This document shows positions 4,766 through 48,193 of a stretch of DNA of 64,000 nucleotides, in pieces. Location of the stretch: contig JANJGN010000041.1 of the NCBI GenBank assembly GCA_026770705.1, positions 5,890,001 through 5,954,000 of the forward strand, written 5' to 3'. The notes under the pieces were generated by a model, which searched no databases, had not been told where the DNA came from, and was given only the letters and a program-made list of their open reading frames with translations. The DNA comes from Isurus oxyrinchus (Eukaryota). Position 1 is the stretch's first letter, and every line of letters starts with the position of its first letter. The translations under genes and the position numbers were made by a program.

Positions 4766-5670
4766 TTAATGTTGTTGCCATTGTGATTCTTTCAGGAGGA
4801 ATGTGTGGCCTCTCCAAATGTATTACCCATTATATGATCGCCATGGCTACGGCAGATCTCCTGGTTGTTTGTGCTCAAGTCATGTTGAACAATAAGCTGG
4901 ATATGTATTTTCCTGCTTCATTCTTGACCATGAGCACAGTCTGCCCTCTAACTGTGACATTGACTTATGCAGTCATATCAGCTTCTGTCTGGTTAACAGT
5001 GGGGTTCACCTTCGATCGTTTTGTGGCCATATGTTGTAAGAAGCTGCGAAAAAAATATTGCAAGGCGACGACAGCAGTAACTGTCATATCAGTGGTGAGT
5101 GTGTTGAGTTGTTTGACGAACATTCCCTGGTACTTTGCGTATGAACCTGCATATACAATGGACAATGTAAATCGTGGTTGTGTCCTAAAACTGACATTTT
5201 TCATTTCTGATGAATGGGCCGCATTTAACTTGCTTAACCTTGCCTTGACCCCATGTGTTCCATTTATTCTAATTTTGTTGCTAAATCTTTGGACGGCAAG
5301 ATGTATTTTGGCAGCCAGTAAAGTTCGCAGGGGTCTCCACGGTTGCAACAATGGAGAACATCACAAGGATACTGAAATAGAAAACCGAAGAAAGTCCATT
5401 GTTTTACTCTTCAGTATAACCGGTAGCTTTATATTGCTCTGGACAGCTCCAATTATATATATTATTTCTCTGCATGTAACAATCACATCGATTTCTGGGA
5501 CAAACGAGATTGAGACAGTTAGTTTCATGCTTGGATTCCTCAGTTGCTGCACAAATACATTCATTTATGTGCTGACACAGGCTAAGTTTAGGGAGGAGCT
5601 GAAGAGAGGAATACAGTATCTTGTGAAACTGTGCGTTAAAATAGGCAAATTACAGCTGAAAACCCATTGA
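4766..5670 (+). CDS. GPR139/GPR142-like class A GPCR, copy 1, exon 2 (exon 1 upstream of window)
   Basis: Open frame with TM1 end to TM7: MATADL (TM2), TFDRFVAIC (TM3), NIPWY, TPCVPF (TM5), FILLW (TM6), NTFIY (TM7), FREEL (helix 8). Preceded by polypyrimidine tract and TACAG acceptor (AG 4764-4765); stop TGA ends 5670. Confidence 0.92.
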
Positions 5671-5858
5671 CCTTTACAGGAGGACATAAAAATTTTGTGC
5701 TGAATGAGCTCATCTTAGCAATAGGCTTGTAACAAAGTTTAACACTCTGGATAAAATAATATCCTACTATAGATGCATGTTTTGTCATATAATGTCGAAT
5801 TAAACTACTTTTCACACTAAACTGTAATCAATGGTGAAATGTAAGCTGTGATAATAAT

Positions 5859-5875
5859 AATAAATAAATAATAAA
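5859..5875 (+). terminator. Polyadenylation signal cluster (AATAAA x3), GPCR copy 1
   Basis: Overlapping AATAAA hexamers ~190 nt after the stop; conserved in all three copies. Confidence 0.55.
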
Positions 5876-8800
5876 AATATTGAACTGTCCCTGTTAGCGT
5901 TGCAGAGTTAGAAAGTTTGAATTGTGATACCAGGTCCTGACAGCCTCGTATTCATTGGAACAGCTGTTCCTATAAATAAAAGAACACCCAAAACAGTAGT
6001 TGCTGGATCTCTGATAACTCGACATATGTAACATAGACAAACGTCACCAATTTCCTACAAATCACTTCTGAGCCAAATAGTACATGGGGGAATTTTCAGA
6101 ACAAGTTTCATGAAGTCTGACACCCTCCAAATTTCGGACAGTTGTAGAATGAGCTGCTTCCCAGATTTCCATATAACTCACATGATTTAAACAAGGAAGG
6201 CCTGCTCTTCACGTGTTTTGTGAAAGGATGGGAATTGGCATAATTGATCAATCATTCCCATGGTACATCGGGCTGAGCGACGGCTCTATATCATGGATTC
6301 AAAACTTTTAAACTCAATTTCCCTACGATTCATTTGAAAACGCATATAGCTCACACTTATTTTTTCACGATTTATGCGGCTACCTCTTCCGCAAATGCTC
6401 ATTCACAACACTCTCTGTTTCATGTTATCGGGTGCTTTCACACAGAAAGCCACCAAATGGCTGTTGTCTTAATTCTCGAATGTTTAAATATGTTTAACTT
6501 GATATCCACTCATAATTATAGCGAGTGACGTCTCAACCATGTATCAGCACGATTTCCCAGCCAAGAAACGGCTGATCACACCTGGCCCCAACATTAATTT
6601 CCTTCTTGGCTTACCTACACATGATGAATGTGAAAAAAATATAATGTAATTCTTCCTGTGGCATATACTTCTAATTTCTTTAACTTCAATGCCATTCATA
6701 GAATTGCACCATAGACGGGCAACAGCATAGAAGCAGCTCATTTGGCCATTCTTTTCCTTATTGTCTCTGATAAGGAAGTTGCAACTGGCAGCCACTGATA
6801 GAATAGAGGCACAAAGGTGCAAGTGCTTCGATGTTAGAACATGGCAGACTGACCTGTCCCTCGGGTATGGATAATTGTGGCGACCGTGCCTGGCACCATG
6901 CTTTGGGGGAGGGTGGGGGGCGGCGGAATGTGTTGTGCGCTGTGGTGACCATTGAAAGCGGGTGACCTTTCATATCTGGGTAAGTTTGAAGGCGTCTGTT
7001 TAAGTGACACAAATGAGCGGCCCCATTCGTATTTAGGATTCAATGGCCAGCATGAGCAGGGACACTGGAAATGGGGCTATATTGCTCGCGTGCGGAGGAA
7101 ATGCAAAGCAAAAAAGCAGGAAATGAAGAGACCCTGATATGTTCTCCAGAAAACTAGAAGGCTGTGAAAAATGTTCCGGAAAATCTGTAAAATATTCAAT
7201 TAATGCACTTTAGCGAATGCAGCACCGAGTCTGTGGAAGAGGGAAAAATCTACACAGGCTGATGAAATAGCAAATTCTTCTGATGCGCTTCCCAGTAAAG
7301 AATTAATATATGGTCCAACAAATTGGCGAGATACCCTATTCAACAAGAAGACGATGGACATTCCTTTGGGAAAGGGGCCTGTGAAAATATTGGGCAGTGC
7401 CTATGTCTTTCCAAACGATGATGAGAACGAAACTTTTCAGAAGACTTAAACTCACTGGAGATTCCAAACGGAAAAATAGTTGAAACAAATTGCCTGGTTA
7501 CATGAAAAATCTCTGATGCAGATTTATGATTCTGCTGCAATTTGTACGGCGCAGAAAACGCACGCAAAATATGCAAGGAATGCGGCTGTGTCTGGAAACA
7601 TCACAATGACAGATTGCAATGTGATCGAAATACTTAAGGAGCATTTTCAAAACGCAACAAAATGAATTGAAACAAAGCGAATGTTCCCAGAATTGAAGGC
7701 ACTGGATGATAAAAAAAAACAGAGAGATAAATAAACAAAGTGAAGAAAGAAAAGGGCAATCCGCGTTCATAGATATTATAGCAGTCGTTCAGCTCCAGTA
7801 GATCATTACTCAGAGTTTCGTTGAAAACCTGCAAGGATTTATGAACACATCAATGAATCTTTTCCGGGATTAATTGCCATTAGAGCAAAATTGGACTCTA
7901 CCATACAGGGATATGCCCAATGCATCAAAACATAACACGCTCTTGACGATTTTCTTTGCTCTTCTATTAGAAATGAGATAATTTTGATAAAGGCGTTGCA
8001 GGTGAAAGAAATAAACGTTATTGTAATGGTGCAGGCTGCAATAAACCTTGTGCTTATTCTATTCAGTACCCCGGGTCTGAGTGATGAAGATCAGATATTC
8101 CTTGTGTTCATTAAGTTGATCTGACTTCTGAAGATGTGAATCGAGTAGAGGATTTATTCATTTTATGCTGACTCAAGACAACAGTTGGCCAGGCCTGATT
8201 CTCTCAATGATGCGCCAGATAAGCTTGGCCTTCGCATCACTGACAGTAAGATGCCGGGACACCACAAACGGGTAAACATTAAGTGTCAGAAACGAGGCGT
8301 ACAGGCCTGCCCCCTTCATCAAAAACCTCGAGGCTTGTTAACTCCATGAGGCTGACTCAACTTATCTCTGGTATTAGAAGTTATGGCAAAGTGCAGTGCT
8401 AAAACCATGACATTGATTCGGAATAGTGCACCGAAATTACATAATTATTACAGTTTAAAATAGATGGCATATATTGAGAGCGGATGCTTTCTAAATAATG
8501 TGAAAGTCGTTGTCAGACTGCTGGTGGAATTTCGAGTGTAGAGTGGGAATGAAATCTGTTACCAAACAGCTGAATTTAAATGGCATTGATTACATTTGCT
8601 GAAGAAGGTGAAAACTCAACCCTTAACATTAAGGCTCAGTCTACGATCAACGACAGAGTCGAAGCTTTCGAATTTTGCTTTGCAAAGGTTGAGTGGGACG
8701 ACAGCATATTTGCATAAGCATTGTTCCCCAGACGATTCCATCTTTCGAAATGCAGTTTCAGGCTGCTTTCTCATTACGGCGAAATAGCGAAAATGAGAAG

Positions 8801-8879
8801 CAGGCTGCATAGCACTCTTAATAATTTAAGATATTATTTGCAAGAGCGGTTCTTTCATGAAACGTTGATGGGCCAATTT

Positions 8880-10985
8880 GTGAGTAGCTGGAAAACGGCA
8901 AATGGATCAGATATTGGTGGATTGGTTTCAGAACCAGTATGTTGACGAGCCGACTAGGAATCGAGCAATGCAGATTTTAGTGCTCTGCCAAGTGAAAGAC
9001 TCATGGATTTCTATGCTCCCAAGTAGTATTACGGAAATAGTCACAATAAAGTGATAGAACTTCGCAATAAGTATGGCAGCAAAATGCTGATTTCTGAAAC
9101 TCCGTTCTTCAATCTGGAGAAAGGAAACTATGATGTAACACAGGCAAGTTGGCAACGATGGATTGAGAAAGTATTGGAAAATATTTGCCAGTGGACAGGC
9201 AAAGGCGAGTATTTAAGCAAATAATGTCAACATCAGACATGCATTCATCGAACGCTCAAGCACATACACGGAAAGAAATCACAAGCATTGTTACCAAATG
9301 AAGTTAAATGTTGCAGTACATGAAATTAAATTATGTGTCGAGACACAGGAAGAAAAGTAGTAAATCTGGGGGTTGTGGGAAATTTAGAACACAGCAAAGA
9401 GAGAACTAAGAAAGTTATTTAGAAATGGGAAGATAATAGAATGCAATCCAGCGAGGAACATAAAGAGCAAATCTGTGCAATTTACAAGTAGTTTCTGGAA
9501 CGTTTACATGTGAATAGTGAAACAGCTTAGAAACGAAACAGTATTTTTTGCCAGTCGAAGACATAAAGGATATATCCAAGATAAGCTCGGCTACGAAGGA
9601 ACTTGTGAAACGGGGCAGCGAAAAGAAATAAATAGTTTCAATGTGAACTGAATTGTAGGTTAAATAATGTGCTGGACTAGAATTCCTTCATCTCAAGAGT
9701 GCTGAAGGAGGAGGCTAAAGGAACAATGGATACTTTGGTTGTTTTCTTTCGAAAATCTTTAGCTTTTGGAAAGCCTCCAGCGCATTACAAATTATCAGAA
9801 GTACCTGGAGAAACTCAGCATGTCTGGCAGGATCGATGGAGATCCAGTCCTCATGACCCTTCAATAGAGCTAAGTGGAAATGGAAAAGCGGTGAAAGATA
9901 AATTGGTTCAAGGGGAGAGGGGAGAAAACAGTGATGAGAGGAGATAACCAAAAGATGTCACAGACAATAGAACAAAAAGGTGTCGAAGGTGCTGATAGCA
10001 TCTAAAAGAATGTGCTACATAATAGGGAATGTGGGACAAGCAAGGTAGCTCTAGTGGGAGTGGGGTGAAATAAAAGATGGGTAGAATACATTTAAAAAAT
10101 GGAAATAGTTGGGAAAAGAAAAATCTAGATAAATTATTCGAAAGAAAATAAAAGGGAGGGGGAAGAAATGGAAAGGGGGTGGGGATGGAGGAGGGAGTAT
10201 AAGATCTAAAGTCGGTGAACTCAATATTCAGTCCGGAAGGCAGTAAAGTACCTAGTCGGAAGATGAGGTACTGTTCATCCAGTTTGCGTTGAGCTTCACT
10301 GGCACAATGCAGTAAGCCAAGGACAGACATGTGGGCAAGAGAGCAGGGTGGAGTGTTAATATGGCAAGCGAAAGGGAAATCTGGGTAATGCTTCCGGACA
10401 GACCGAAGGTGTTCTGAAAATCAGGCACCCAATCTGTGTTTGGTCTCTCCAATGTAAAGGAAACTGCGTTGGGACCAATGAGTGCAGGAAGTTAATTTGG
10501 GGGATTTGCAAGTGAAATGCTGCTTAACTTGAAAGGAGTGTTTGGACCTTTGGACGTTGAGGAGAGACGAAGTGATGGAAGAGTGGTCTATGGTGTCAGG
10601 GAAGGAACGATCACTATGGAATGCCGAAAGGGGGTTTGAAGTGAAGTTTGATGGTCGTATCATGCTGGAGTTGATGGAAATGGCCGAGGATGATCCATCA
10701 AGTGGGAAGGCTGGTGGGGTGTTCAAAAAGGACAAGGCGGACCCTATCATGTTTCTGGTAGGCAGGAGAAGGCGTGAGGGCGAATGCAAATTATTAGATG
10801 TTGCATCACGATTTAAGAATGGAATAAGCGTGAAGAGACTGTACTGCAGTCATGTTAGTTTGACATAAGTGGTCTGGAAAATGACAAAATCTCTTAGTAC
10901 AGATGCGATAACTTGGTATTTAGTAAATAATGGTAAAATTGCGCAGTTAAAAAGGGTATATGAAAGGGGAATCATATTAGACAGA
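8880..10985 (+). mobile_element. Degenerate CR1 LINE ORF2 relic, interrupted by the Penelope element
   Basis: Residual CR1 peptides QYVDEPTR..ILVLC and VLKEEA..TLVVFFRKSLAFGKPP; resumes after 10787 (DVASRFKNG, cf. NVTPLFKKG). Boundaries approximate. Confidence 0.65.
9796..10786 (-). mobile_element. Penelope-like retroelement fragment (GIY-YIG endonuclease region plus terminal repeat)
   Basis: Minus frame FQVKQHFTC...LYIGETKHRLGA*...MSVLGLLHCASEAQRKLDEQYLIFRLGTLLPSGLNIEF is a Penelope GIY-YIG domain with one stop. Flanked by CAAATTAT at 9788-9795 and 10787-10794. Confidence 0.85.
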
Positions 10986-11237
10986 CAATTAAACAACTCA
11001 CCGGATAAGGAAGTTCCTCAAATATTCACATTTCCAATGCTGTGAGGGCCCAACGCAGCAGTGGAAAATATTAAGCTGAACCATTCGCAAAAAAACTTCC
11101 TCTACAAGTACCGAGTCGATGACCCATCTTGGCCTCCTCTGTAGGTTCCCAAAATCAGACATGATAGACTTCAGCCAAATGTCTTCACTCTCCGTGATAT
11201 CAGGAAGCCACTGAACCTCTGGATACTGCAAGACGAT
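10986..11237 (+). mobile_element. Non-LTR retrotransposon ORF fragment (RTEX-like, tentative); also ~32290-32541
   Basis: Degenerate RVDDPSWPPL.VPKIR..LQP..FTLRDIRK; homologous to the minus-strand relic at 1-340. Confidence 0.5.
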
Positions 11238-11803
11238 GAATATTGCTGCAATTGTTTGATTTCCATTTTTATAGAAAGATGTGAATGCACGGAGGCGCTT
11301 CAGAGAAGGCTCACTAGTTGTCACTTGGAATGAACGGGATGGCTTGTGAGGAAAGGTTAGGAAGATCGGAGTTGCCTGCACAACATTTTAGAGGAGGAAG
11401 GGGTGAAATACTTGAAGTGGATGCGAACCTGAAAACTTTTTTCAAGGCAGTGGGAAATTATTTTTCATTTTTTGGGTGAGACCTGAATTAGGCGACGTTT
11501 ATTAAAAAATGCTTTGCTCTTTTAGGATAGAGTTTATGAATTTGTGTGTTTTTATGTTTGTTTCTCCTCGAGGTTTATCTGACTGTGGAACTCTCTACTT
11601 TAGAAGGTGGTGGAGGCTCGATCACTGATATTGTTAAGATGGAGGTCAAAATATTATTGCAAAGAAAAGGAATCAAACCTTAGCGGGTTGGTTTGGAAAA
11701 TGTAACTCGAAACAATCATATAAACAATGGACTATATGAATGGTGGAGAAGTCCGATGGTCCAAATAGCTTATGTCTGCTCATATCTTCTATGTTCGTAT
11801 GTT
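11238..11803 (+). mobile_element. CR1 LINE 3' end; also ~32542-33107
   Basis: End of ORF2-like sequence, TGTGGAACTCTCTAC 3' region and tail CTGCTCATATCTTCTATGTTCGTATGTTC. Confidence 0.65.
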
Positions 11804-12851
11804 CCTAATCGTGACGACATGGACGAATCTGATCACAACAATATAAACTTTCAATTTAAGTTGTTGTGAGAGCGAATGAGTTCAGTGAGCACAAAGCGGT
11901 GAGGGTGAATTTAGTTTCATGAGAGTTTATATATAGCCTGCACAGTTTTTGGTGAGATTTGATCATACAGTTTTGTAACTGGTTGTTGCCAGGAAAATCA
12001 TTACAAACATTGAGCCTGGATTTCACGAAAAGGACACGTGAGGCCTTGAGCAACAGATGGTCTGGAGTAAAGGTTCTGATATAGTGTGGAGGATCGAGTA
12101 TAAAGCACTGAGTGAGTGTGATGATATGGACCGCATGTTAATCAAAGCCAAATAGATCACACAGGTTCTGACCTGTCTGTTTCAGCATCAGATATTGTCC
12201 AGACACTCGTCCAGGAGCAAATATTGATTAGAAATGAGGAGAATTACCGCCATCTTCACAATCTTGAGAAACATCGACTGTATTGCAATGAATCATTGAT
12301 TTCTGGCATCGCATCTAGATACAATGGTTTACCAGGAAGTACGCCAAAGCAAAGATGGGAGAGTAAGATAACAAGATCTCTATTAAGATAAGAATGGGTT
12401 GTTGAAGTAATAACTGATTGCAGAGATTCATAAAAAAGACAAAACAGGGCAGATTAAACTGCTACAAGAGTGAGAGCATCAGACATCGTTCTACAATCTT
12501 ACTGGGGCAAAAACAATAGCCACGATAACGAATAAATGTATTAAAGCACTAGTCGGAAATGGATCTGTTTGGCTTAGTTAACGACGAATCATATCCAGAA
12601 ATAACATTCAAAAAATGTAAGATAATACGCTGTCCCTTGTTTGTACATTCCGTCTCTTGTTCCCATATCGACTGTATTGTGTAACTATCGAACCAATTGA
12701 TCTCAGATTCAGATCCAGTTTTGCAACATTCAAATCTATTGTTCCCAGATTCAGATCTGTGCAGGCAAACTAGGTAAATGTTGGTCGAAAATGGAAATCC
12801 AACGGCAAAGTGGAATCTCATTGACTCCCCTAGAATGCAATGGCAGCCATG

Positions 12852-12923
12852 TTTTCCTGAGTATAGTGGTGAGTGTCCATACCTTCCACACGGGGGACCA
12901 GGGCTCAATTCACCACTGTGGAG
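12852..12923 (+). pseudogene. tRNA-Asp-derived pseudogene
   Basis: 72 nt aligning without gaps to vertebrate tRNA-Asp(GTC) (about 52/72 by eye). AGTATAGTGGTGAGT A-box region intact; B box decayed (GGCTCAATTC); anticodon position reads TCC; stems broken. Confidence 0.7.
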
Positions 12924-13929
12924 AAAATTTGTTATTTGGATTGTGCGCTGCAGAAGAAGTGCTCACGGTTTTGGTTAGCAAATCGGTTTTCATTTCTGCA
13001 TGATGATCGAGCTAAAGATCACCTCCTCATCATTTGGGACAGAAGGCAGTTTTGCAAATGTACATCATGAATAATGTTTCTGGAAAGATCCCCTGTGGGC
13101 AACGTCCCTTCAATTCATCATGCTGCCTGCTTCCACTTTGTAGACGTCGCAACGTTTACCCAAAATAACGCTTCCCATTGTTTATTCAGGGCAATTATAT
13201 AAAAAAAACATGCTTTAGCATCGACAAGTGCAAAAGTTACCCCACACTTTGCGGTAACCAATAAGGTCAACATAATTCACATCCCGACCACGATTGAACA
13301 TCCGGGGCTCACTGATGTCAATAGGTTCCAGGCAGGATCACAGCTCCACCTCGCCTGTACCCGAAGATGTGGGAGCCTTAAGTAAGATTAGGATGGCCAG
13401 AGTGCCACTGCAATGTACGCAATGTGTTTCAGTAAGCTCCAAACAGGCAAAATCACCAAAGAAAAACATTTGAATGCAAGGTAATTTTCATTTCGCACTC
13501 CACCCTTCTTTCAATTCATTCCTAAATTGGTACATTACTTATGGCATGTGAACACTTCCTTGCAGCACTTAAAATTCGATTGGAAGGAAATAACAACTTG
13601 TGTGCAGTCACCAGAAAAAGGCTAAGGTAATCACATGTATACACACAGTTTCTCCAAGAATCCCGTGGTTCTGTCAGCATCGCATCAAGTCTTTGTCACC
13701 TGGTAACTCGACTTCAACTAAAGTTCCGGCTGCCAAATGAGCCTGGATTTTGAAAGCCGCTCACTGAACTCTGCAGAACACGCTGTGCCTAAAGGTGAGA
13801 TATGCTTTTTCAGCTTGGTATGCAGCCCGAGTTATGCATGGCTTCTTCGTCCTAACTAAGAGTTCCTGTCCCAGGTGTGACGTGCAAATGTCCAAAATGT
13901 TCACTGGGCGAGAAAACCGTCAGTTTTCA

Positions 13930-14030
13930 CAGAAACCCAAATTGTTGGAAAAACACAGCGGGCCTGAAAGCATCTGTCGAAAGAAAGACACGGTTTACTT
14001 CAGGAGTCCGTGTGGCACTTCTTAAAAACG
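13930..14030 (-). mobile_element. Old degenerate Penelope-type terminal repeat (also ~35237-35337)
   Basis: TGGAAAAACACAGCGGGCCTGAAAGCATCTGTCGA... resembles the arm TGGTAAAACTCAACAGGTCTGGCAACATCGGCGGA at 14216. Confidence 0.5.
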
Positions 14031-14163
14031 GTAATTTGTCAACTGTGTTTGGACGTGTTTGCATGTGTTGCCATAGGAAAGCGATCCCAACTCATTTCTG
14101 CACTGCTCCTTAAGCAGTTAACATTCAGTTTGAAATGAAAACAGCCGTGTGGATACCTATATA

Positions 14164-14412
14164 TAAAAACAAAAATCTGCGGATGCTAGAAATACAAAAC
14201 AAAAACAGAATTACCTGGTAAAACTCAACAGGTCTGGCAACATCGGCGGAGAAGAAAAGAGTTGACGTTTCGAGACCTCATGACCCTTCGAAGGGTCATG
14301 AGGACTCGAAAAGTCAACTCTTTTCTTCAGTCATGAGGACTCGAAACGTCAACTCTTTTCTTCTCCACCGATGCAGCCAGACCTGCTGAGTTTTTCCAGG
14401 TAACTCTGTTTT
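14164..14412. mobile_element. Fold-back (palindromic) element made of two inverted Penelope-type terminal sequences
   Basis: Inverted arms ~14202-14289 and 14290-14412 centred on GACCCTTCGAAGGGTC; right arm has a 35-bp direct duplication; arms match the end of the Penelope element at 9796-9870. Confidence 0.8.
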
Positions 14413-15579
14413 GGTGTCGATAACTATCCTGTTGTGTTGTAAGCAAATGAATTACAGCTTTGCCCCGGTCCCCAATCCTCCATCCTCACAGTGCTTTTCG
14501 CCTGAAGCCGGCCTGTGAACCCCATATTTGAGTACCAGGTTTGCAGTGCGCTGGGTGTAGGCTACATATGGCACAGCCACACCACATTGCTTTTAGCAAG
14601 GTGCTATCAGGACCTCATGTACTGGGAACCAGATTGGCCTTGAGATTTCAGACATTCTGTAGTGGAGCTTCCTGTGCTCACCGTGTGTGGCATTTTGGTA
14701 CATAGGCATATTCCAAATGAACTGCAAGACCTACCCAGAGAACCGGGCCTCTAATGAACATATTTCCGAAAGCAGGCATGCAGCACTTTGCAAGATTATC
14801 GGTTTTGCGGATTTTGCCCTGCCTACAACAGTTGGAAATGGTTCACCGGCAGTGAGTTTGTAAATTTTCATTGGCTTTCTATGAGGCTGAAAGGATATGC
14901 AAGTCTTGCACTGACATCAAAGTGAATTAAAACAAACTGCCTGGCAGGCCTTGAGCTACCATCTGAGGATTTGCAGAACTCAGTGAGTGAAGCCTGCCAT
15001 GTTCTAAACTTGTTTTTGTCAGGCGGTATTTAATTTGCCCATCCAGTTAGTGGCCTTGGAGTGCTTTCTGCCGAATTATCAAACTTCCGCAATGAACAGA
15101 GGGGTGCGTTATTCAAAGCGGCTCTGGTATCTTGGAACACATGACCAGCAACGGTTTTTAACAACATCTCTATCCTCAGTTATATTGTCAATTGAAAACA
15201 TTCTGAGTTAGCAGCAAAGCGCTCGCACGCAGCTGACTGCCTCCGTGTACTGACATATGAAAGGCCATTGGTCCGTGAATACGACTTCCCTCTGTAGCTA
15301 CCCAGTAGCATCTCTGCAAGGTTTTATACTTGGCTCTTTGAAAAGGCTGCCAGTGGTCCTGAAATGAATGTGTAATCCTGTGTCAAGCTCTTTGACCGCA
15401 TTCTTAGACAAACATCGACAAATATATGACAAACAGAGCTGGAGAAATTAAACAGCCTTAAATGGTGCCACAAGTGGCATGAAATGGGTTCACACAGAGA
15501 ACCACTTTGCATCGCTCTGATTATGACGCCATCGTCATGAAGTGAATGACACTGATCATCTGCTCAGGGCTGTTGCATA

Positions 15580-15795
15580 TTCATGGCTGAGTTGGATGTT
15601 TTATTGACCAATAAGGGAGACTAGGATCATGAGGATGTACGTGTGTGCTGTGAGGGAGGTGACTGAGCGGGCCAACGGAAGTTGCTGTTTGGGGGAGAGC
15701 AGGCAGGATAGCGGGGCTGAGGCCACGATCGGATAAACCATGAATTTTCCGATTTGCAGAACAGGCACAATGGGCTGACATTTAACTATTCTGTT
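15580..15795 (+). mobile_element. Old CR1 3'-end fragment; also ~36887-37102
   Basis: GAGCAGGCAGG..GCTGAGGCCACGATCGGATAAACCATGA..GAACAGGC resembles a CR1 3' UTR. Confidence 0.45.
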
Positions 15796-16967: not shown

Positions 16968-17240
16968 CATTCATGGATGATGGCAACACTGGCAAGGCCA
17001 GCATTTATTGCCCATCTCTAATTTCACTTGTGAAGCGGGTGGTGAGCTGCTGCGGTCCTTGTGCTGTAGTTACATCCACGGTATTAGTATGGGGGAGCTA
17101 TTAATTTGACACAGGGACAGTGAAGGAACGGCGATATTTTTACGAAATCCGGACGATGAGTGGCTTGGAGAGGAACATTCAGCGAGTGGCTTTCCCTTGT
17201 TCATGTTGCCTTTGTCTTTCCACATCGTAGCGCTCGTGGT
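16968..17240 (-). mobile_element. LINE 3'-end fragment (same family as 49800-50100); also ~38274-38546
   Basis: CACTGGCAAGGCCAGCATTTATTGCCCATCTCTAATT...GGTGGTGAGCTGC is the reverse complement of the 3' end seen at ~50010-50090. Confidence 0.6.
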
Positions 17241-17500
17241 TTTGATTAGTTAACTAATGGGCTGCATTTTAGGTAAAGGTAGCAACTTTTCTCTGATCCC
17301 TGTTACGAATGCTATCTTGTCAGTTTTAACATGATGCTCTAGAACAATTAACGTGGCATCTCTTCCGAATCTCTTGTGTTTGTAACGTGTTTCCCTTATT
17401 TCCCTGCGATGAATTTAAAAAGAGGATTTCTACGCTTCAGCTCCCAAGTTCATTCCATCTTGTGCATCCATCTCTGCAGGAAAGACATCTCCTCTTAAAG

Positions 17501-35470: not shown

Positions 35471-35719
35471 TAAAAACAAAAATCTGCGGATGCTAGAAAT
35501 ACAAAACAAAAACAGAATTACCTGGTAAAACTCAGCAGGTCTGGCAACATCGGCGGAGAAGAAAAGAGTTGACGTTTCGAGACCTCATGACCCTTCGAAG
35601 GGTCATGAGGACTCGAAACGTCAACTCTTTTCTTCGGTCATGAGGACTCGAAACGTCAACTCTTTTCTTCTCCACCGATGCAGCCAGACCTGCTGAGTTT
35701 TTCCAGGTAACTCTGTTTT
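35471..35719. mobile_element. Fold-back Penelope-end element (unit C copy)
   Basis: Duplicate of 14164-14412. Confidence 0.8.
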
Positions 35720-38700
35720 GGTGTCGATAACTATCCTGTTGTGTTGTAAGCAAATGAATTACAGCCTTGTCCCGGTCCCCAATCCTCCATCCCCACAGAG
35801 CTTTTCGCCTGAAGCCGGCCTGTGAACCCCATATTTGAGTACCAGGTTTGCAGTGCGCTGGGTGTAGGCTACATATGGCACAGCCACATCACATTGCTTT
35901 TAGCAAGGTGCTATCAGGACCTCATGTACTGGGAACCAGATTGGCCTTGAGATTTCAGACATTCTGTAGTGGAGCTTCCTGTGCTCACCGTGTGTGGCAT
36001 TTTGGTACATAGGCATATTCCAAATTAACTGCAAGACCTACCCAGAGAACCGGGCCTCTAATGAACATATTTCCGAAAGCAGGCATGCAGCACTTTGCAA
36101 GATTATCGGTTTTGCGGATTTTGCCCTGCCAAGAACAGTTGGAAATGGTTCACCGGCAGTGAGTTTGTAAATTTTCATTGGCTTTCTATGAGGCTGAAAG
36201 GATATGCAAGTCTTGCACTGACATCAAAGTGAATTAAAACAAACTGCCTGGCAGGCCTTGAGCTACCATCTGAGGATTTGCAGAAGTCAGTGAGTGAAGC
36301 CTGCCATGTGCTAAACTTGTTTTTGTCAGGCGGTATTTAATTTGCCCATCCAGTTAGTGGCCTTGGAGTGCTTTCTGCCGAATTATCAAACTTCCGCAAT
36401 GAACAGAGGGGTGCGTTATTCAAAGCGGCTCTGGTATCTTGGAACACATGACCAGCAACGGTTTTTAACAGCATCTCTATCCTCAGTTATATTGTCAATT
36501 GAAAACATTCTGAGTTTGCAGCAAAGCGCTCGCACGCAGCTGACTGCCTCTGTGTACTGACATATGAAAGGCCATTGGTCCGTGAATACGACTTCCCTCT
36601 GTAGCTACCCAGTAGCATCTCTGCAAGGTTTTATACTTGGCTCTTTGAAAAGGCTGCCAGTGGTCCTGAAATGAATGTGTAATCCTGTGTCAAGCTCTTT
36701 GACCGCATTCTTAGACAAACATCGACAAATATATGACAAACAGAGCTGGAGAAATTAAACAGCCTTAAATGGTGCCACAAGTGGCATGAAATGGGTTCAC
36801 ACAGAGAACCACTTTGCATCGCTCTGATTATGACGCCATCGTCATGAAGTGAATGACACTGATCATCTGCTCAGGGCTGTTGCATATTCATGGCTGAGTT
36901 GGATGTTTTATTGACCAATAAGGGAGACTAGGATCATGAGGATGGACGTGTGTGCTGTGAGGGAGGTGACTGAGCGGCCCAGCGGAAGTTGCTGTTTGGG
37001 GGAGAGCAGGCAGGATAGCGGGGCTGAGGCCACGATCGGATAAACCATGAATTTTCCGATTTGCAGAACAGGCACAATGGGCTGACATTTAACTATTCTG
37101 TTTTAGGTGTTTGTTGAAATGCAACCCACACCAAAGTTGCAGGCGCCATTGATTGGGATTCATTGTAATCAGTGTTTCCATCTGCAAACGATTGTCTAAA
37201 TAATACATTTCAGGGCGAGGCGATTTCGGTGCGGAATGCCTTCCCAGCGATGTGCTATATATATCCCATTATTTTATTCAAAAAACTGTTTTTCATTCAC
37301 TTCAAGCATCACTCTGGATGGAGTATGTGTGTGCGTGAACAGGAGGATTGGATGGCACGGGGAAGCGTTACTGAGGCTGGATAGGGCTGGATTGTCTTGA
37401 ACGCATTATGTTGAAATATTTCGGTTGGGAATACAAAAGCCTTCTCCATACACTTTCTATTGCAGATCAGGTCACCACCAATACCAACTTCCCAGGCCCT
37501 ACGGTTGTGTTTATAATTTCCAGTCATAATGGTGTAGATTAATGTGCAATGAATGAGAATGTCAGTCAAGTCACCGACCAAAGTGTCAGTGCCACAGGAA
37601 TCCACAAAGCGATTTGGGCAGTGTATGAGTTCCATCTGGAAGCTTAAATGTCAAAGACAAACATCACACATGTGCCCTGTTGGAACATGGAATGTGTCCC
37701 GAAACACATGACAGTGGTGGACATCTGAAATTTCCCCCATTACCTCTGCTGGCAATTCAGGCCAATTGAGTTTCTTAAAATTATTTTGATCTAAATTAGT
37801 AACGATTTGATTCCCAACATCGCTATTCAGGTCAATCACTTCCCGCCGTGACTGTCCAATATGGGATCTACCCATTGCTCGTTAAAATATAACCCCTTCA
37901 AATTTTTGACCGCACACATCATTCCAATGTTCGACTTTTCACTTCGATAAGGTTCCTTTCAGAAGGAGAGTGACTGACGTAACCTGTTTGTTCAATGACT
38001 GAAATTAATTAATTTCTTTAGGGGACATGAATGTGCTCATGGGGATTTATCTGCTGTCTACATAACTGTTTCTCTGAATGTCACATTTCTTGTTTCGCAA
38101 AAGGGCAGTGCATCTGTTTCAACAGGAGTTAGCTCTTCTGACAGTGGGTATAATTTCTTGTACTTCTTCAGATACCTGGGCCATTTAGAGACACATTCTC
38201 GAAGCTCTCAGTTTCCGATGTACATTTATGAACATGCTCTCGGAATAACAATGTAAATTTCTGTCCTTATTTCCATTCATGGATGATGGCAACACTGGCA
38301 AGGCCAGCATTTATTGCCCATCTCTAATTCCACTTGTGAAGCGGGTGGTGAGCTGCTGCGGTCCTTGTGCTGTAGTTACATCCACGGTATTAGTATGGGG
38401 GAGCTATTAATTTGACACAGGGACAGTGAAGGAACGGCGATATTTTTACCAAATCCGGACGATGAGTGGCTTGGAGAGGAACATTCAGCGATTGGCTTTC
38501 CCATGTTCATGTTGCCTTTGTCTTTCCACATCGTAGCGGTCGTGGTTTTGATTAGTTAACTAATGGGCTGCATTTTAGGTAAAGGTAGCAACTTTTCTCT
38601 GATCCCTGTTGCGAATGCTATCTTGTCAGTTTTAACATGATGCTCTAGAACAATTAACGTGGCATCTCTTCCGAATCTCTTGTGTTTGTAACGTGTTTCC

Positions 38701-38806
38701 CTTATTTCCCTGCGATGAATTTAAAAAGAGGATTTCTACGCTTCAGCTCCCAAGTTCATTCCATCTTGTGCATCCATCTCTGCAGGAAAGACATCTCCTC
38801 TTAAAG

Positions 38807-38876
38807 ATGGGAGAACTGATACTTCATCAGATAGAAGCCATTTATTATCCTATTCTCGCGGCTATTGGCGTTCCTG
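38807..38876 (+). CDS. GPR139-like GPCR copy 3, coding exon 1
   Basis: Identical to 17501-17570; GTAAG donor at 38877. Confidence 0.88.
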
Positions 38877-41800
38877 GTAAGAACCTAAACACAACCATTA
38901 CCTGTATAAATTAATGTTGACGTTCTTCTCAAAGGACGGTTCCAATAATATATGAATAGTTTATTTAATGTTGGGCAGTCATCGAAGAAGGGATGTATGT
39001 TTAACCATAACGTTAACAGGTTTCTTCCTGTTGGTCTATCATTCACTCCGTGGTCCCCAAAGCTGACACCGTATTCATGCTTTAGGGAATGCCTTGTGGG
39101 CTCTGCAATAATTATCAAAATCAAGTGCAAACCCAGTTTGAACTGGTAGAAAACACCATCTATGAAAATCTGTGCAGAGGCAAATTCGTATTCTGAAAAA
39201 TTATGCATGAAATACTTCAAGTCTTTGCCAGTGCTTTTCGTCCATTTTCCAATATTTAAAAGAAAGGGATCCCTGTCAAATCAAATAGTTATTGCCACAG
39301 CGATACTTGTACAAATCTGTAGGCAGAGACGATTTCTGGAAGTTCTGGTGAAAAAGATTAGTGTGTGTGCTGAAGACATTTGATGTCTAAATAATTTGTC
39401 TGTTGAAATACATGAATTTCTACAGCCTCATTTATCGAACCTAATGAATGTACATTTGGTGTACTCACTGAAGTACCGCAAAAGGTGACAGGCAATTTTT
39501 GGTCGGGAAGCTTGCACCAGCAGCAAGTTGACAATGACCGAATGATCCGTTTTGTAGGCTTTAGCAGATGTTTAAATAGTGGTCAGGACATAAGGGCTAC
39601 GACAATGTTGTTCTTTAAAATAGGGGCATGGAATATTTGACGTTTACCTTGTGCAATGATCTGACATCTGTTCTGAAAGTTACTACTGCCGATAGTGCAG
39701 AACTACTTCACTACGGCCACTGGAGCATTATACGAGAATTTTGTTTTCAATTACTGATGCATGACGTAAGTAATCAAACATCTATCTCAGCATGGAGATT
39801 GCTAACTCAGACATAAGTGGTCCGACTTCTGAACATCTATGCAACCCGAGTAGTTGTCACATTCTCATTATTCTGCTCACATCAATTTCTAGCCATCCAC
39901 TTCCTGCTGTTGAAAACGCTGCTTCCAAATCTAACTGATTTACATTGAGGATTGGAGTGGATTGATATTAAGCATTGTCAGAATACCCTGCTGCCTTTCG
40001 AAAATCACATTGCCAGGTTACATAGTGGCAATGACAGAGGGATATAGGAGCATAGGAAATACGAGTAGCATTTGACCATTTGGCAACACGAGGGTGCCCC
40101 ACTACTAAAGTATATCTTAGCTGAAATTATGCCTCCACAGCATTCCGTGCACTATCTTAAATTTTTGGATGCATTAAATATTGCGAAATCGGTTCATTGA
40201 CACCTTCAATATACTCAATGAATGCCCATGTGCCGAAGATGCAGTAGATAATTTCGAACATTTACCCTTCCCTGAATGACGAATTCTTCCTAATCTCAGT
40301 TCTAAATGCAAACCTCTTATCCTGATTTTGCTTTTCCTGGTTTTAGACACAACCGCCAGGTGAAATATGCATGCAAGATCTACATCACCAGAACTTATCA
40401 GAACTTTGAATTCTGCAGTGAGGTCTCTTCGCATTTCCCAGTGCTTCAGAAAGCAGAGGATGAGGCTCGTCAAAGTCTCCACAAAGGACAATACCAGATA
40501 AAACCCAATAATCCAACAAGTAACCAGTTCAAAATTCCTTGTCGCAGAGCTACAGCAACACCTGATGAAACCTACACCAAAGGAGCAGAATGGAATGTTT
40601 GACCGGCACCACAAACATCACCATCAACACTCCACATGACAATTGCAAAGTTGGGGATACTCTGGCTTGGGTTTACAAATTATTGTTGCACAAATCAGCT
40701 AAAGCTGATTATCCACAGTGCCTCCTGAATGCCCACTTTTGAGTTGTTAATCAATGTGAAATCTACCCCAATTTGCACAATGGTTGTCTCACGCAGTATG
40801 ATGGAGGGAAGCCCTGATGTGAGGAGGAATTATTCTGCACAAGGACCGCGCGGTGCTTAACCCTATCAATCCTTTAATAGACAGATGCACATGTGGTGGG
40901 TAGCTTGTTGGAGCGAATTCACTTAGATTTTTGCATCTGGTTGGTTCCTTCGTCATCTGCTAAAATCCAGTCTAGAAGTTATCTTTTTACCTCGGCCAGT
41001 TCGGCCATTATTAATTCTACAGATCCCCTCTTACTCACAGATATCGAGGTGCCCGGTGTAAAGCTTTTTTTCTTGTCAATCTCCAAAACGTGGGCCATTG
41101 AAGACCATCGATTCTTTCGCTACACAGCAGGAGGGGACAGTCATTGTCCATATGGTACGTGACGTCATTGATTTCATTTCAGTACCACGTGCTCTCAAGG
41201 ATATTTAAAATGATGCAAACTGAACGTGTTGCAAAATGCTATTTAGGAATGCAATAATACAGTTGAGCGATATCGAAAAATTCGGTGGATATTTCACCTT
41301 TTAGATTAGATTATTTCACTCAGATTTTTGCTGATGATTCATATGAACTTTAAAGCAGTAAGAGGAATTATCAAATATAGAAAAACAGCATGAATAATTA
41401 AGTTCACGGAATGATTGCAAATCAAGCAGTCTGCTGTGTCCTGGATTAAGTCAATATTCTTGAATTCTATTGGAGCATAAGGCATCAAGAAAGTTATAGA
41501 GTATCCCATCACACTCCTGATTTGTGCATTTTAGATGGAAGAAAGATTTTAGAGAGTGCCTTGCTCACCACAGCATTCTCAGATTCTGACCTGTCCGTTT
41601 AGTCACAACTTCTTGTCAATGTTTTGTCCAAGGACATTGAATATGGGGGCTTAAGCGATGGTAACGTGATTAAAACGCAAGTGTATATTGTTGGATGATC
41701 TTTTGGTGCAGGTGTTCATTGGCTGTCAATTTTCTGCGCCGGATATTACCTGTCATTTTTTCAGCACAAGTCTCGCTATTACCCAGTTTTTGATGTAAAT

Positions 41801-44800
41801 GGGCATGGATTTCAACAGCATCAATTTTGTCGCAAATTGAACATTGAACAATCATCAGTGGACACAATCCCCTCCCAATACCCCACCCCCTCCCCACTAC
41901 ACCAAATACTCTTCTGTGTTTAAAATGCAGAAAAGTTCATTGATGCAGCAGCTTAATATGGCTGTGCTCAGGACACTGCCCACAGGCTCTCGTCTAGTGA
42001 TGTCATGGGGCTGACATAAATCAACTGGAAAACAAAAGAAAAATGTAAAGAAAAAATATTTTCGCTTGGTATGACTTCAAGCAGTGGAGAACCGGCACTT
42101 TAATCTTATTGACTATAATTCTTATAGCCCTCGTTGATACGCTAGTGTAATGACTGTTCTCCTGATCTAAAACACAGCCCCTCTCTCCTCACCACATGAG
42201 CACAGCACTTTTGAACATGTTTAGACCAAGGCAGAACGGAGATTTGGAGCACGCACAAAGCAATAATTGAGTGTCATTGTGCAGTTTACCGCTGAGCATG
42301 TGGTGATAAGAAGCATTGCCCATGATACTTTTTAACACTTTGGTTATGATGAAATGTGGGCCGATGGGGCTGTAATTAGAATGCTAGGATTTGTCGTGGT
42401 TTTTTTTTTGTGGATATGTATACCAGTGAAAATGCTCACACTTTTGTTTCGATGCCAGTGTTTTGGATGCACCATACCTGCTTCGATAGGAAGGCTTATT
42501 CAGGAGCACTGATTTCCCATCCTCTTGGCTTTATCTAAAATCACCCATAGCCTTTGCATCATACAGATCCTTCTGTCATTCCATAAATTCATGTGCTGAG
42601 AATCACATTGTATGAAGACTGGAAATTGTGATGCTTGTCACCCCTAGGAGGAGGCCGGGATGGTTCATCCACCCGTCAATTCAGGGTGAATGCGGCTGCA
42701 AATTCATGTATATGCTGCGATGCACTGTGCTACAGATTCATTGCCGATGGGGACATTGTTGGAGAGCCATTGAGTTGCAAAATGTTCCACCACCATTAAA
42801 GTCGACTGTGACAGGACTTCAGATCTGAGCTATCGTTATTTGTTAGGGGGATCAATGAGTCCAGTATTTCTCATACTGAACATGCTGTTTTGCTTGCAAC
42901 TCGGCCTGTCTTACAATGCACCAGGTTAAGCTGTTTTGTTAGGTAGGATCGCTGCTGCCTTGGACATACGAAAGATGTTGGCTGGGTTCTTTTGTTTGTG
43001 CACATGACCCCGCAAGCCTGGAAGGACAAGAGCAGAAGAGGCATGGGAACGCTGTTAATTATAAATCCTTTCCAAGTCACACACCAAGGTGACTTAGCGA
43101 TTTATCACGGTTCCTTGACTGTCACTGGATGAAAAATCTGGAAATCCATCGCTTGTAGCAAAGTGTCTGCACCCGCTTCACATGGACTGCAACGCTAGAA
43201 AAAAAAAACATTTTCAAGAAGAATTAATGAAAACGGAAATCAAATTAGTCATCTTGTCAATATATTCAAAGAAAAGAAAATGTTGCAAGATGACCCAATG
43301 ATGAATACTGATATCATTTTTGAATTGAAATTACGGCCCTGGCTGCTTCTTTTCTTCCAATTCAACAAAAATGAACTAAAAAATGCATGTTTAAATGTAA
43401 ATTATTTTACGATAACACTGGCCCCTAGCTGAGAATGTATATTTCAAATGAACTCCTGAATATCCAAATCTTTAAAAAAATGATTGGCTCCAATTGTCGT
43501 CCGCAAGTTGGAGCCACCCCCCCACCCCAACCACGTCACCCCCAAAACCCCAAAACCCCACCACCCACCCACCTCAAATATGCAGAATTTTCACAAAGAT
43601 CAATAACGTACGTTGCTTATAATGAAATTCCGTACATAAATCTCCCCAGTTGCAGATGGAGAACGGGCGGGCCCACCTTTTACCAGTTACTAATTAGCAA
43701 GTTATTAAGATTGTGAACGAGACAATTGTATGTTTTCTTGATTTATGCTCTGCACTTGTCATGGCCCAGACGAGAGAGAAAAGAATGTTTCTGGGCAGCT
43801 ACCATCAGGCGACAATCGCGCAGAAGAGTGGTTCTGCCTCCGGGACCATGATTAAATGTAGCAACAGATTGTGCTGGGGAAGATGGCAGCGACGTCATGT
43901 TTACTTTTCAGATTTTTGATTCTTGCCTGAGCTTTCAACAAAAAAACATTTTTTGGAAAAACAGTTTCTGTGAGCAGGTGGTCTTGAGCTTGCAACCAGA
44001 CCGACTTTCTGTTCGCAGCATTACACTCTGCCACATGATGTTCAGGTTTTCACTGCAGATGGGACGGGGAGCCCATTTTGCATCACTCATTGCTTCCTCT
44101 CCGTTGGAATTTAATGAATTGTGGAGCGGGAGGTGGTCTAAGTGAGGGTCAGTATAAAATGTTCTAATTTTACATTTCTCCAATCTCATGCTGCCGAGAA
44201 CCGTAAAATCCAGACCACGGTCTACTTATCGTAGTGTTTCTTTATGCTCATATATGACGATTAACGTTCTGAGCCTGCACCGCAGGATTTGTCTCGCATA
44301 TCTAGTTTAATTTCTGCTATCGAACCTGCAGCAACGCGTCATAACCACAAACACTATTCAGTGGATCACACTCGCTGGTGCATTCGCCACAACATTCACA
44401 AGTTGACTGAAATAAATTAGTTCTTAGGTTTCTGTCTTGAATGAAACATATGGCACAGAAAATTGTTAATTTGTACTTACACTGCGAATAGAACATTGTT
44501 GTTAAAGTGATATGGATCTGGGATCCGGGAGGAAATTCCATCGCTCTGTAGTTCTTCAGACACGGGTGTTTGCAGTAACGACACCAAGAAGCACATAAAC
44601 CAAACAGCAAATTAATAACAGGTCAGGAGCAGAGTGCATTTGCAGATTGCAAGGGGTCATTCTGTGGCATATATATTTTTTCATTTCTCTAGTTTATTTA
44701 GCAATGAATAACGTTGATAATATATTCGATGACTGTATACTTAATTTGCCAGGTAATCAATGGATAATGGTTTCGATAGATCACTATTTCATTCGGTAGA

Positions 44801-47288
44801 TAATTGGATGGCTCAATCCAGGGCATTTCAAAGTTTAATTCGGAAGCAAATACTGGAAATATACTGATAATTTATTGGACAACAGTTTTGATCTTTAATT
44901 TGTTCAAAGATTGACTGTTTCATTATATAACCGTTTAAATTACGGTATTTTATAAACTGCCCCTTATTCACAGTGTCAACCAGTACAGTTTCAAGTGATG
45001 ATAATTTGGCTAACAGTCTTTGGATAAATCACAATACTGCACGGATAATTATGTCACTCAGTTTAAAAGCATGTCATTGTAGGAATATTATTATTTGGTT
45101 TGCTCAAACAATAACAGGTATCGGGTAAATGAAGGTTATTTTGCATTTTTGACATATATTTTAAACTGGAATTGTGTCAAAATAGCTTTGAATTCTAAAA
45201 CTTCCATTCTTTCCAGTGCAGCCTACAATGTCAACAGAAACTCAAACTTTAATTTGTATCCATTGCCTGGCATTTTCAAAGCTGCTTGTGATTACCTTTG
45301 ACAGCTCCATTAAGTCAATTAATGTTGATGTTTGCATGCGAGTTAGAAAATTGTGCATGGGAGGCTGCCAACTGGACTGCGTTTGTAACAGAAATAGCCA
45401 TTTTTGTGTGTGTATCGTTAAAGCTTACCAAATTGCAAACATTTAAAAATGTAAAAAGCTGTTTATATTTATCCGACTAATTCGCCTTACTTCATTCAAA
45501 GTTCATCTAAATCATTAACCAACATTGACTGAATTAATATCATTCAAAATGTTAATTCACCACCCCTTTTACAGACGTTCAATGCATTGTTGTTTCCCTG
45601 AGTTCAAGTTTGCGAAAACTCTACGTTCAGTCTGCACCATGTTGCAGAGCCTTGAATGCACCTGGTAAACGAATTAACTCTCTATCTACTTATACAATTA
45701 TTGTGGGAATGTTTTCCATTATCTAATGTGTGCCTCCCGAATCTAATCGGAGATTTCAATCAGAAAGCTATTCTGCACCTTTACCAGATCCATGACATCT
45801 TATCCTATACCATCGCCAACAGATCTATATAGAAAATGTCGGCAGCGATCCGATGACATACTTTCGAAGATCATTCAGGCTAGATCATTTAACTTGCTTC
45901 GAAATGCAGACAATAATTTAATAAACGTGCGTATCAAGTTATCACATATCTGGCAGCTACAAATTAGTTCACTGAGATTCACTAAGAAAATGTATTCTTC
46001 AGAATTCAAATGGAACTTCACTTATTAAGCAACTGAAATCATGATGCAACCGTGATTATCTGAAGCTCACGTCAATTTTCCTTGAATTATATACATCATT
46101 TAGTTTAATCAGTATAAATGTTTTGAATTAATCTTCAGCATTCTAATGCAGCATTGAATAACTTTGCTAATTCACTAAAAATGTTCCTGCATTTTGAAGA
46201 AAAAAGAAATATGCTTTTTATAGCCGATCAATGATTGGAAACTCTGCCCTGTCTACTTGAAAGCAAAAAGCCAGTTATGACCTCACCAGAATCAAATCTT
46301 CGAATTGCTCATTAATATTGCTTTGCAAGCAATGTGCCCTTATGGCCAAAAAATCATGCCAACTCCATCTGATAACAATGTCACCGTTCCCATTCTGGCA
46401 TTAAAGTGCCCTCTTGATCACGATGGGCTGCACCCATTCTGCATAGCAACTTTGCTTCGTTCTTTCTGCTATGAATTAGCGATGCATTCACCTGAAATTC
46501 TCCTCAGCATTGCCCAGCCAGCATATCAATCACACACATGATTGAGCAGCTCTCTGGAATAAAACTTGTCACTGGGAACCTGCATAATACTGTCACTCTG
46601 TACTGATTTTCATTGTACAGCCACTATGACAACTCCTGTGTCAACTTGCATCAGGCCTTTCCGAATGCTGGTCTTTTATTGAGCTCAGTGACTATTCTTT
46701 GGCCCTGTGTGTTTACCTTTCCATCTTTAACCACACAAGCGTTCAGATTATTTTCGTGTCCCTGGGCAATATTTTACCCTCAAACTCTAAGTCCTGTTGC
46801 ACAGTCGTCCTTCCCACTACTTATCACAACTATAGGTCACCAGCACGCATTGTACCAGTACCTCTTCCAGAGTATAATTCCACATGGCCCAAATTCTATT
46901 TTGTGCATTTATTTCCCACTTCACATCGTAACAACACACATGGATTGGCTCTTTATACCTTTCATTTACCTTTTAATATTCAACATACCCAGCCGTTTGT
47001 ATGCTTTCAAATTGTCCAATTCAAATTTGCTTTCAGCAAACTCAATCATAATTGCAGAATAGTTGTCCAGTTTACTTTGACATTCGTTTCAAAAGCAGAA
47101 TTATGAACTGACGTTTCTCTTCCCTATCCATTTTCACTGGGTCCCGTTTACATTTAGAACATGGTCACGTCAAAAAGCAGGTTGTGCATATTTGGGTCAA
47201 ATGGACGATCCTTTGCTGCAACAGGAAGAAGATTAATTATATTCATCTGTGTCGTCAACCTCATGCTCTCTCTATCTCTCTCTTACAG

Positions 47289-48193
47289 TTAATGTTGTTG
47301 CCATTGTGATTCTTTCAGGAGGAATGTGTGGCCTCTCCAAATGTATTACCCATTATATGATCGCCATGGCTACGGCGGATCTCCTGGTTGTTTGTGCTCA
47401 AGTCATGTTGAACAATAAGCTGTATATGTATTTACCTGCTTCATTCTTGACCATGAGCACGGTCTGCCCTCTAACTGTGACATTGACTTATGCAGTCATA
47501 TCAGCTTCTGTCTGGTTAACAGTGGGGTTCACCTTCGATCGTTTTGTGGCCATATGTTGTAAGAAGCTGCGAAAAAAATATTGCACGGAGACAACAGCAG
47601 TAGCTGTCATATCAGTGGTGAGTGTGTTGAGTTGTTTGATGAACATTCCCTGGTACTTTGCGTATGAACCAGCGTACATAGTGGACAATGTAAATCATGG
47701 TTGTGTACTAAAACTGACATTTTTCATTTCTGATGAATGGGCCGCATTTGCCTTGCTTAACCTTGCCTTGACCCCATGTGTTCCATTTATTCTAATTTTG
47801 TTGCTAAATTTTTGGACGGCAAGATGTATTTTGGCAGCCAGTAAAGTTCGCAGGGGTCTCCGCGGTTGCAACAATGGAGAACATCACAAGGATACTGAAA
47901 TAGAAAACCGAAGAAAGTCCATTGTTTTACTCTTCAGTATAACCGGTAGCTTTATATTGCTCTGGACAGCTCCAATTATATATATTATTTCTCTGCATGT
48001 AACAATCACATCGATTTCTGGGACAAACGAGATTGAGACAGTTAGTTTCATGCTTGGATTCCTCAGTTGCTGCACAAATACATTCATTTATGTGCTGACA
48101 CAGGCTAAGTTTAGGGAGGAGCTGAAGAGAGGAATACAGTATCTTGTGAAACTGTGCGTTAAAATAGGCAAATTACAGCTGAAAACCCATTGA
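47289..48193 (+). CDS. GPR139/GPR142-like class A GPCR, copy 3, exon 2 (gene join 38807..38876,47289..48193; 324 aa)
   Basis: Intact 7TM frame; acceptor AG at 47287-47288; intron 38877-47288. Confidence 0.92.

Follow-up and report, generated by a model that had tools for sequence, protein, structure and literature searches.

The 64,000-nucleotide window analysed here (Isurus oxyrinchus, assembly GCA_026770705.1, contig JANJGN010000041.1, positions 5,890,001 to 5,954,000 of the forward strand) carries a tandem array of genes for a class A G protein-coupled receptor (GPCR). The question that it raises is what kind of receptor is being copied, how far its family extends and what such a family may do. 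Our analysis places the array in a very large elasmobranch family that lies outside the GPR139/GPR142 clade and combines a common signalling core with a variable predicted ligand pocket; judging from sequence, we see about an even chance that this family works as a birth-and-death, chemosensory-type receptor repertoire.

A four-unit array of two-exon receptor genes

Self-alignment of the window gives a repeat period of ~21.3 kb (range 21.2-21.4 kb) at ~98% (97-98.7%) identity. Exon 2 of the receptor sits in three 318-codon frames, at 4766, 25877 and 47289, each with an AG acceptor before it and AATAAA signals after it (Table 1). A 70-base exon 1 followed by a GTAAGA donor is predicted to join in phase 1 to the acceptors at 25877 and 47289, yielding a predicted protein of 324 amino acids without internal stop, whose N-terminus has 24 residues and which carries both the cysteine of transmembrane helix 3 (TM3) and that of extracellular loop 2 (ECL2). 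An earlier reading of the window from its letters and open frames (the sequence-only reading) had described these intact frames, splice sites, polyadenylation signals and the two cysteines correctly. Its picture of three ~21-kb units with exactly one receptor gene each has to be revised: the three exon-2 frames are there, but once 80 kb upstream and 120 kb downstream of the window are added the array comprises four units and four intact genes, only two of which (copies 3 and 4) are complete inside the window, and a decayed minus-strand exon-1 relic also lies inside units (~12.7 and ~34.0 kb). Copy 2 has its exon 1 at window position -3709, i.e., 3.7 kb upstream of the window, and copy 1 lies wholly upstream (exon 1 at -25125, exon 2 at -16644); the last unit ends at 49545.

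Compared over 11.5 kb, the units diverge by 1.3-3.0% and 7-24 indels, and their proteins by 3-12 residues. The pattern of informative sites (28, 12 and 5 for the three pairings) is not constant along a unit, suggesting that array units have exchanged sequence.

Copies across the genome and in public proteins

Exact motif matches were counted over the whole genome, and loci were sampled from the first 100 places per motif, all on large scaffolds (scaffolds of this shark's assembly bear C numbers below). The TM7 motif S[CS]CTNTxIY returned 2,267 matches (control: 4), the TM3 motif DRF[VI]AIC-C/W 1,805 (control: 1) and the motif combining exon-1 end and donor 1,087 (control: 0), far beyond the mere handful of paralogs that would have refuted the sequence-only reading on its own terms. 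All 40 sampled TM3-motif loci match the family hidden Markov model (77-503 bits) and 12 of them have the TM7 motif too; exon 2 is open in 23 of the 40 on inspection and in 17 under a strict filter. The 20 TM7-motif loci sampled without a listed TM3 match are likewise all family members, eight being truly open (nine under the filter), so that the broken share of sampled copies is ~45-55%.

These counts set a floor of ~2,260 family loci in this assembly. Where the lists for both motifs are complete, 28 of 100 TM3 matches, counted by eye, are common to both; if this overlap holds genome-wide, the union of motif loci would extrapolate to ~3,600, ~1,800 of them with an open exon 2. A capture-recapture total of ~6,000-11,000 loci, which presumes independent motifs and covers large scaffolds only, was set aside.

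A protein search of the same genome, with 131 of 7,982 candidates scored, placed 128 of the 131 rows in the window's own subfamily (63-100% identity; C41, C45, C39, C56, C153 and C1209); by eye, 22 rows have stops and 10 further ones are partial. Searches with other queries returned mainly different loci on dozens of scaffolds, and family clusters are also found on the chromosome-scale C2, C18, C20 and C21.

Could the array, and a large part of the count, be falsely duplicated haplotypes? We hold this to be very improbable. Many copies do sit on small scaffolds, one locus on a small contig (L010) is 99.7% identical to another (L013) over 3.9 kb, and in several pairs from separate scaffolds no more than 5-7 of 876 coding bases differ; apart from the L010/L013 pair, however, the nearest neighbour of 29 of 30 loci stands at 95-99.2% over 3.9 kb, all 67 coding sequences compared are distinct, and the four collinear units differ by the 1.3-3.0% and 7-24 indels given above. 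The clusters on the four chromosome-scale scaffolds and the copies supplied by two other sharks (49 and 35 of the best 120 public clusters) also speak against an artefact, and more than 1,100 loci remain even if the count is halved.

Among 3,673 public candidates, 2,085 protein clusters match the family at E<=1e-10. The best 120 comprise one unnamed protein and 119 with names, the latter all elasmobranch (15 species of sharks and rays); by eye, 49 are from Heptranchias and 35 from Heterodontus, and the closest two, at 74-76%, are from lamniform sharks. Nearly all of the 120 carry the automatic name 'probable GPR139'; the family genes in RefSeq and UniRef stand under a misleading label, annotated yet apparently unrecognised. 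The unnamed Logan protein (P0120) starts with acceptor-like sequence instead of exon 1 and is therefore no demonstration of splicing. Three public models (P0024, P0046 and P0053) treat a short in-frame intron at the common position as coding; intron length in the family therefore ranges between tens of bases and tens of kb.

What the sequence-only reading called a recent, lineage-specific expansion is thus recent for the array and its subfamily but not for the family as a whole, which spans sharks and rays; as a description of a repertoire that is elasmobranch-wide, with thousands of copies in this genome, it was an understatement.

Receptor class and closest relatives

Pfam places the window proteins in class A (7tm_1 at 62.8-67.9 bits, cut-off 30.5); at E<=0.001 this is their only domain, and the odorant-receptor domain 7tm_4 is absent from them. 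An AlphaFold2 model built on a 104-row alignment has seven helices (predicted local distance difference test 87.8). Its Foldseek matches are all class A, the best being generic peptide-type receptors, with TM-scores of ~0.67-0.75 at 15-22% identity; chemokine, complement and neuropeptide receptors are among them, and GPR139 comes at rank 28. In sequence, the best solved-structure match is GPR139/GPR142 (E 7e-11).

True gpr139 was located on C15 by motif search (95% identical to houndshark GPR139) and gpr142 is a single copy on C22. Because both exist elsewhere as single copies, the array genes are not GPR139 orthologs, as the sequence-only reading had surmised. Two further singletons turned out to be closer. 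The one on C6 (L054, G000:C6:157839131-157840036, minus strand) is ~50% identical to bichir proteins, and among the proteins compared only bichirs supply close relatives of it. The one on C9 (L104, G000:C9:126713131-126714114, minus strand) shares 59% identity with a coelacanth protein that has relatives in sharks, ray-finned fish, amphibians and reptiles; it has one in-frame TGA in ECL2, which reflects either gene loss in this lineage or a mistake in the assembly, while the orthologs of catshark and zebra shark run to full length, the public zebra-shark entry bearing the name of a TMEM183A isoform.

Fish and coelacanth orphans that lie beside GPR139/142 have been named GPR210A/B from Ensembl data, sharks being unmentioned in the accessible text (PMC6504862). 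The C6- and C9-type genes are probably these orphans, a link made by description alone and not by accession. GPR165 was rejected as their identity, as the same source puts it with GPR83 (PMC6504862, accessible text).

A tree (IQ-TREE, LG+G4) of 72 hand-picked rows from ~500 proteins over 319 columns, with only protostome-type relatives as outgroup, recovers the 28 rows of the family as one clade (100/100) with a long stem (0.96). Its sister is the C9 type (93/84, unstarred), followed by the C6 type (99/95) and three amphioxus proteins (98/96). GPR139 and GPR142 are separate from it (100/99), and the superclade uniting GPR139/142 and GPR210-type receptors with the family and its amphioxus relatives has 59 rows (99/97); one long amphioxus row landed among the outgroup. 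The nearness to GPR139/142 proposed earlier therefore gives way to two other single-copy vertebrate orphans as closest kin. Nor is the family in one-to-one orthology with the GPR210-type orphans: the C9 and C6 genes themselves are those orthologs, at 59% and 50%. The window's subfamily groups with a basking-shark protein (100/100). Since shark and ray proteins interleave with subfamilies of this genome, the expansion is older than the shark-ray split.

One feature of gene structure is common to all five lineages: in the family, gpr139, gpr142 and the C6 and C9 genes alike the acceptor lies two bases before the Asn1.50 codon (phase-1 intron). GPR139/GPR142 also share with the family the lack of the NPxxY proline and the retained W6x48, but identity is ~24-33%, GPR139 is without the cysteine pair (C3.25 and ECL2) that the family has, and the family reads DRF, not DRY. 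The GPR210-like orphans do have that cysteine pair (74 of 74 C9-type rows), yet they are single-copy with conserved pockets, and the family is ~35% identical to them.

Further afield, GPR139 orthologs carry Pfam Srw/Srx matches, and a Srw cluster from nematodes is among the Atlas neighbours, as are clusters from rotifers and echinoderms. Nematode srw chemoreceptors probably derive from the FMRFamide/sex-peptide-receptor clade; a literature search returned nothing on this point. GPR139 has been linked to FMRFamide/AST-B receptors (PMC12208981, accessible text). Compared with this invertebrate clade, the shark family represents a vertebrate expansion of its own.

A variable pocket around a fixed signalling core

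Over 126 family rows, N1.50, D2.50, the C3.25 and ECL2 cysteines, D/E-R-Y/F, W6.48 and Y7.53 are each kept in 115-126 rows at every site tabulated, and D2.50, R3.50, N7.49 and Y7.53 are almost invariant. The pocket behaves otherwise. Four GPR139 residues are critical for activation by Trp/Phe (F3x33, H5x43, W6x48 and N7x38; PMC5430874, accessible text), and by that list only W6x48, one of the four, is kept in the window copy; F109, H187, N271 and R244 of GPR139 correspond to Y, N, F and P there and are highly variable across the family. Amino-acid sensing, the example given in the sequence-only reading, is therefore not supported by analogy with Trp/Phe-activated GPR139.

For the 17 pocket positions taken from the accessible text of the same study (5x40 and 6x58 were placed by hand from the helix register, the alignment being unreliable there), mean entropy is 2.54 bits against 1.16 at other TM sites, a value reached by none of 10,000 random sets. 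Against other outer-half TM sites (1.78) the excess persists (p 0.001), and inner halves average 0.78. No such excess appears in GPR139 orthologs (86 rows, 0.44 vs 0.44) or in the C9 type (74 rows, 0.68 vs 0.91).

Selection was estimated from 67 of 70 fetched subfamily loci, all from the better-scoring of the 128 (three had no full parsed frame). The nonsynonymous/synonymous rate ratio (omega) is 0.62 overall, 0.72 in outer and 0.53 in inner parts; parsimony counts give 353.5 nonsynonymous to 172.5 synonymous changes in the outer and 343.5 to 233.5 in the inner parts (p 0.009), and the nonsynonymous rate of the pocket is twice that of the rest (p 0.0016). Site models M1a and M2a were fitted with our own code, whose M0 likelihood agrees with IQ-TREE. 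M2a is favoured over M1a (likelihood-ratio test, LRT, 43.4) with an omega2 of 3.3 on 4% of sites, and three sites exceed 0.9 (exon-2 numbering): F257, the top site, which is 7x42 in the pocket; A182 at the start of intracellular loop 3; and P60, after C3.25. Four segment-wise trees improve the fit by ~440 log units, which indicates recombination among the subfamily genes; with them the M2a test still gives an LRT of 30.4 and the same three sites.

Read differently, the family might be mostly non-adaptive amplification, one or a few functional receptors carried by segmental duplication in unstable regions of a 5-Gb genome with most copies redundant or silent. An omega of 0.6 with half of the sites near neutral, the ~45-55% of sampled copies that are broken and the copying of entire 21-kb units together with their relics would all suit it, as would the reported scaling of tandem gene number with genome size in batoids (bioRxiv 2025.06.08.657570, accessible text). 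It sits badly with subfamilies that, at ~35-45% identity, stay open together (median 45% over 34 rows from this genome), with the interleaving of shark and ray proteins, and with variation that is focused on the pocket under a significant M2a test and leaves signalling motifs fixed. We regard this explanation as distinctly unlikely.

What the family may do

Chemoreceptor and some immune-sensor families evolve by clustered duplication, with numerous pseudogenes, a pocket that varies and a signalling core that stays fixed. The resemblance of our family to this pattern is the reason for which a chemosensory-type repertoire is preferred here, and the tandem birth-and-death put forward from sequence alone is borne out by the copy counts and the mixture of open and broken loci. 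The OR, TAAR, V1R/ORA and V2R/OlfC repertoires share with the family clustered birth-and-death, many pseudogenes, a conserved signalling half and a variable pocket, but they are of other ancestry, whereas the family has two coding exons and no odorant-receptor Pfam match.

Under this reading, many receptors would share one signalling core but differ in their pockets, each detecting other external molecules. The family genes would be expressed, and their products, at the membrane, would signal through G proteins and recognise a diverse set of ligands, presumably in sensory cells of the nose, taste or skin. Our best guess for the ligands is small peptides or peptide-like waterborne cues, because the clade has peptide-receptor relatives. 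New copies arise by tandem and segmental duplication of 20-kb-scale units with exchange between them, most decaying and some diverging at pocket positions.

Several observations weigh against a chemosensory repertoire. The catshark nose is reportedly of the microvillous type and dominated by V2Rs, all V2R probes being expressed (PMC10116579, accessible text), and so has no need of another family. The NPxxY proline is absent from the family (Thr in 118 of 126 rows). The entropy excess of the pocket over the outer half falls to p 0.048 on the 34 rows of this genome alone; the positive class is only 2-4% of sites, one of its three top sites (A182) is intracellular and on a CpG-prone codon, and strong recombination can inflate site tests. 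An omega of ~0.6 with about half of the copies broken also fits weak constraint, and allelic duplicates could raise the family counts up to twofold.

Immune or barrier surveillance, with receptors on leukocytes, skin or gut cells sensing microbial or damage-derived peptides, is an alternative that a huge clustered family with high turnover and a variable pocket fits equally well. FPR and MRGPR are further vertebrate sensor repertoires, mammalian clusters that detect microbial or damage-derived peptides. Chemokine and complement receptors are indeed among the fold neighbours, but beside neuropeptide receptors and in matches as generic as TM-scores of ~0.67-0.75 at 15-22% identity, and the nearest kin are neuro-type orphans; we consider this alternative unlikely.

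In its specific form the chemosensory reading is tentative, with somewhat less than an even chance: an undescribed elasmobranch chemosensory GPCR family derived from the GPR139/GPR210 clade, with ~1,000-2,000 intact genes here, rivalling the largest mammalian odorant-receptor repertoires. The size of the family dwarfs the known shark chemoreceptor sets, namely 34 V2R and 4-9 of each other type in catshark (PMC10116579) and a largest V2R cluster of 65 genes (bioRxiv 2025.06.08.657570), as given in the accessible texts.

We found no description of the family in the literature covered; subscription papers and some supplements (PMC11979771, bioRxiv) lay outside that coverage, and tandem-cluster tables there may list its genes. 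Family terms were not found in the accessible parts of PMC11979771, PMC10620051, PMC10115646, PMC13621994, PMC12208981 and bioRxiv 2025.06.08.657570, nor in those of PMC8455134 and its 24 supplements. Cartilaginous fishes have been credited with a relative paucity of GPCRs (PMC8455134) and said to have few GPCRs and olfactory receptors (PMC8455134, PMC6368271, PMC10116579; accessible parts), a picture that thousands of loci with a diversified pocket contradict, whatever the tissue. If the chemosensory reading is true, it would account for the keen chemical senses of sharks despite their tiny known receptor sets, a puzzle that becomes directly testable as existing tissue RNA-seq data can be recounted for 'probable GPR139' loci. 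Mass mis-annotation is flagged too, most shark 'GPR139' entries not being GPR139, and the family amounts to a naturally occurring collection of pocket variants in an orphan clade to which a human drug target belongs.

Other features in and around the window

Table 1. Receptor gene parts, relics and duplicated segment in the window (window coordinates)
Position	Strand	Feature	Remark
1..49545	+	Window part of the four-unit tandem segmental duplication	Starts ~28 kb upstream of window
4766..5670	+	Exon 2, array copy 2 (TM1 from Asn1.50 to stop)	Preceded by AG acceptor
12696..12757	-	Decayed exon-1 relic, repeat-N-terminus subtype	Inside array unit
17501..17570	+	Exon 1, array copy 3 (ATG to phase-1 donor GTAAGA)	
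25877..26781	+	Exon 2, array copy 3	Spliced product 324 amino acids, Pfam 7tm_1
34001..34062	-	Second copy of the decayed exon-1 relic	
38807..38876	+	Exon 1, array copy 4	Donor GTAAGA
47289..48193	+	Exon 2, array copy 4	
62037..62299	+	Broken exon 1, divergent family member with repeated N-terminus	In-frame stop and frameshift; donor GTAAG kept

The dead, divergent member that the sequence-only reading placed at 62 kb is broken and of a different subtype, as stated, but consists of exon 1 only; its exon 2 is absent from the window, and several downstream pieces could be it, one of them (98.9 kb) open. The N-terminus of this subtype (62037-62160) is made of short tandem repeats that begin at Met, with N-x-T-like sequons, and may possibly form a glycosylated stalk. 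Across the 264-kb region around the window, six exon-2 frames are open and about eight pieces have decayed.

Part of the array unit, 2.15 kb long (11255-13405, 32559-34712), is found again outside the array at 53036-55188 with 93% identity, a piece that we interpret from its sequence as a remnant of an older duplication. An older, ~80% identical copy of the unit lies 120 kb downstream (L050 region, window-equivalent 165082-177217) and has its own exon 1 and an open exon 2. Degenerate tandem repeats occupy 56954-58807 and 60341-61555 (~68-70% between copies) and contain, on the minus strand, long open frames of low complexity; the one at 57475-58404 has no Pfam match. Besides the receptor frames, seven long open frames of the window have no Pfam match. 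At several places on C41, different subfamily genes recur in pairs ~48 kb apart (e.g., 1796061/1844307, 3804007/3852976, 5463254/5511448 and 6334536/6383550), which points to multi-gene cassettes duplicated over megabases.

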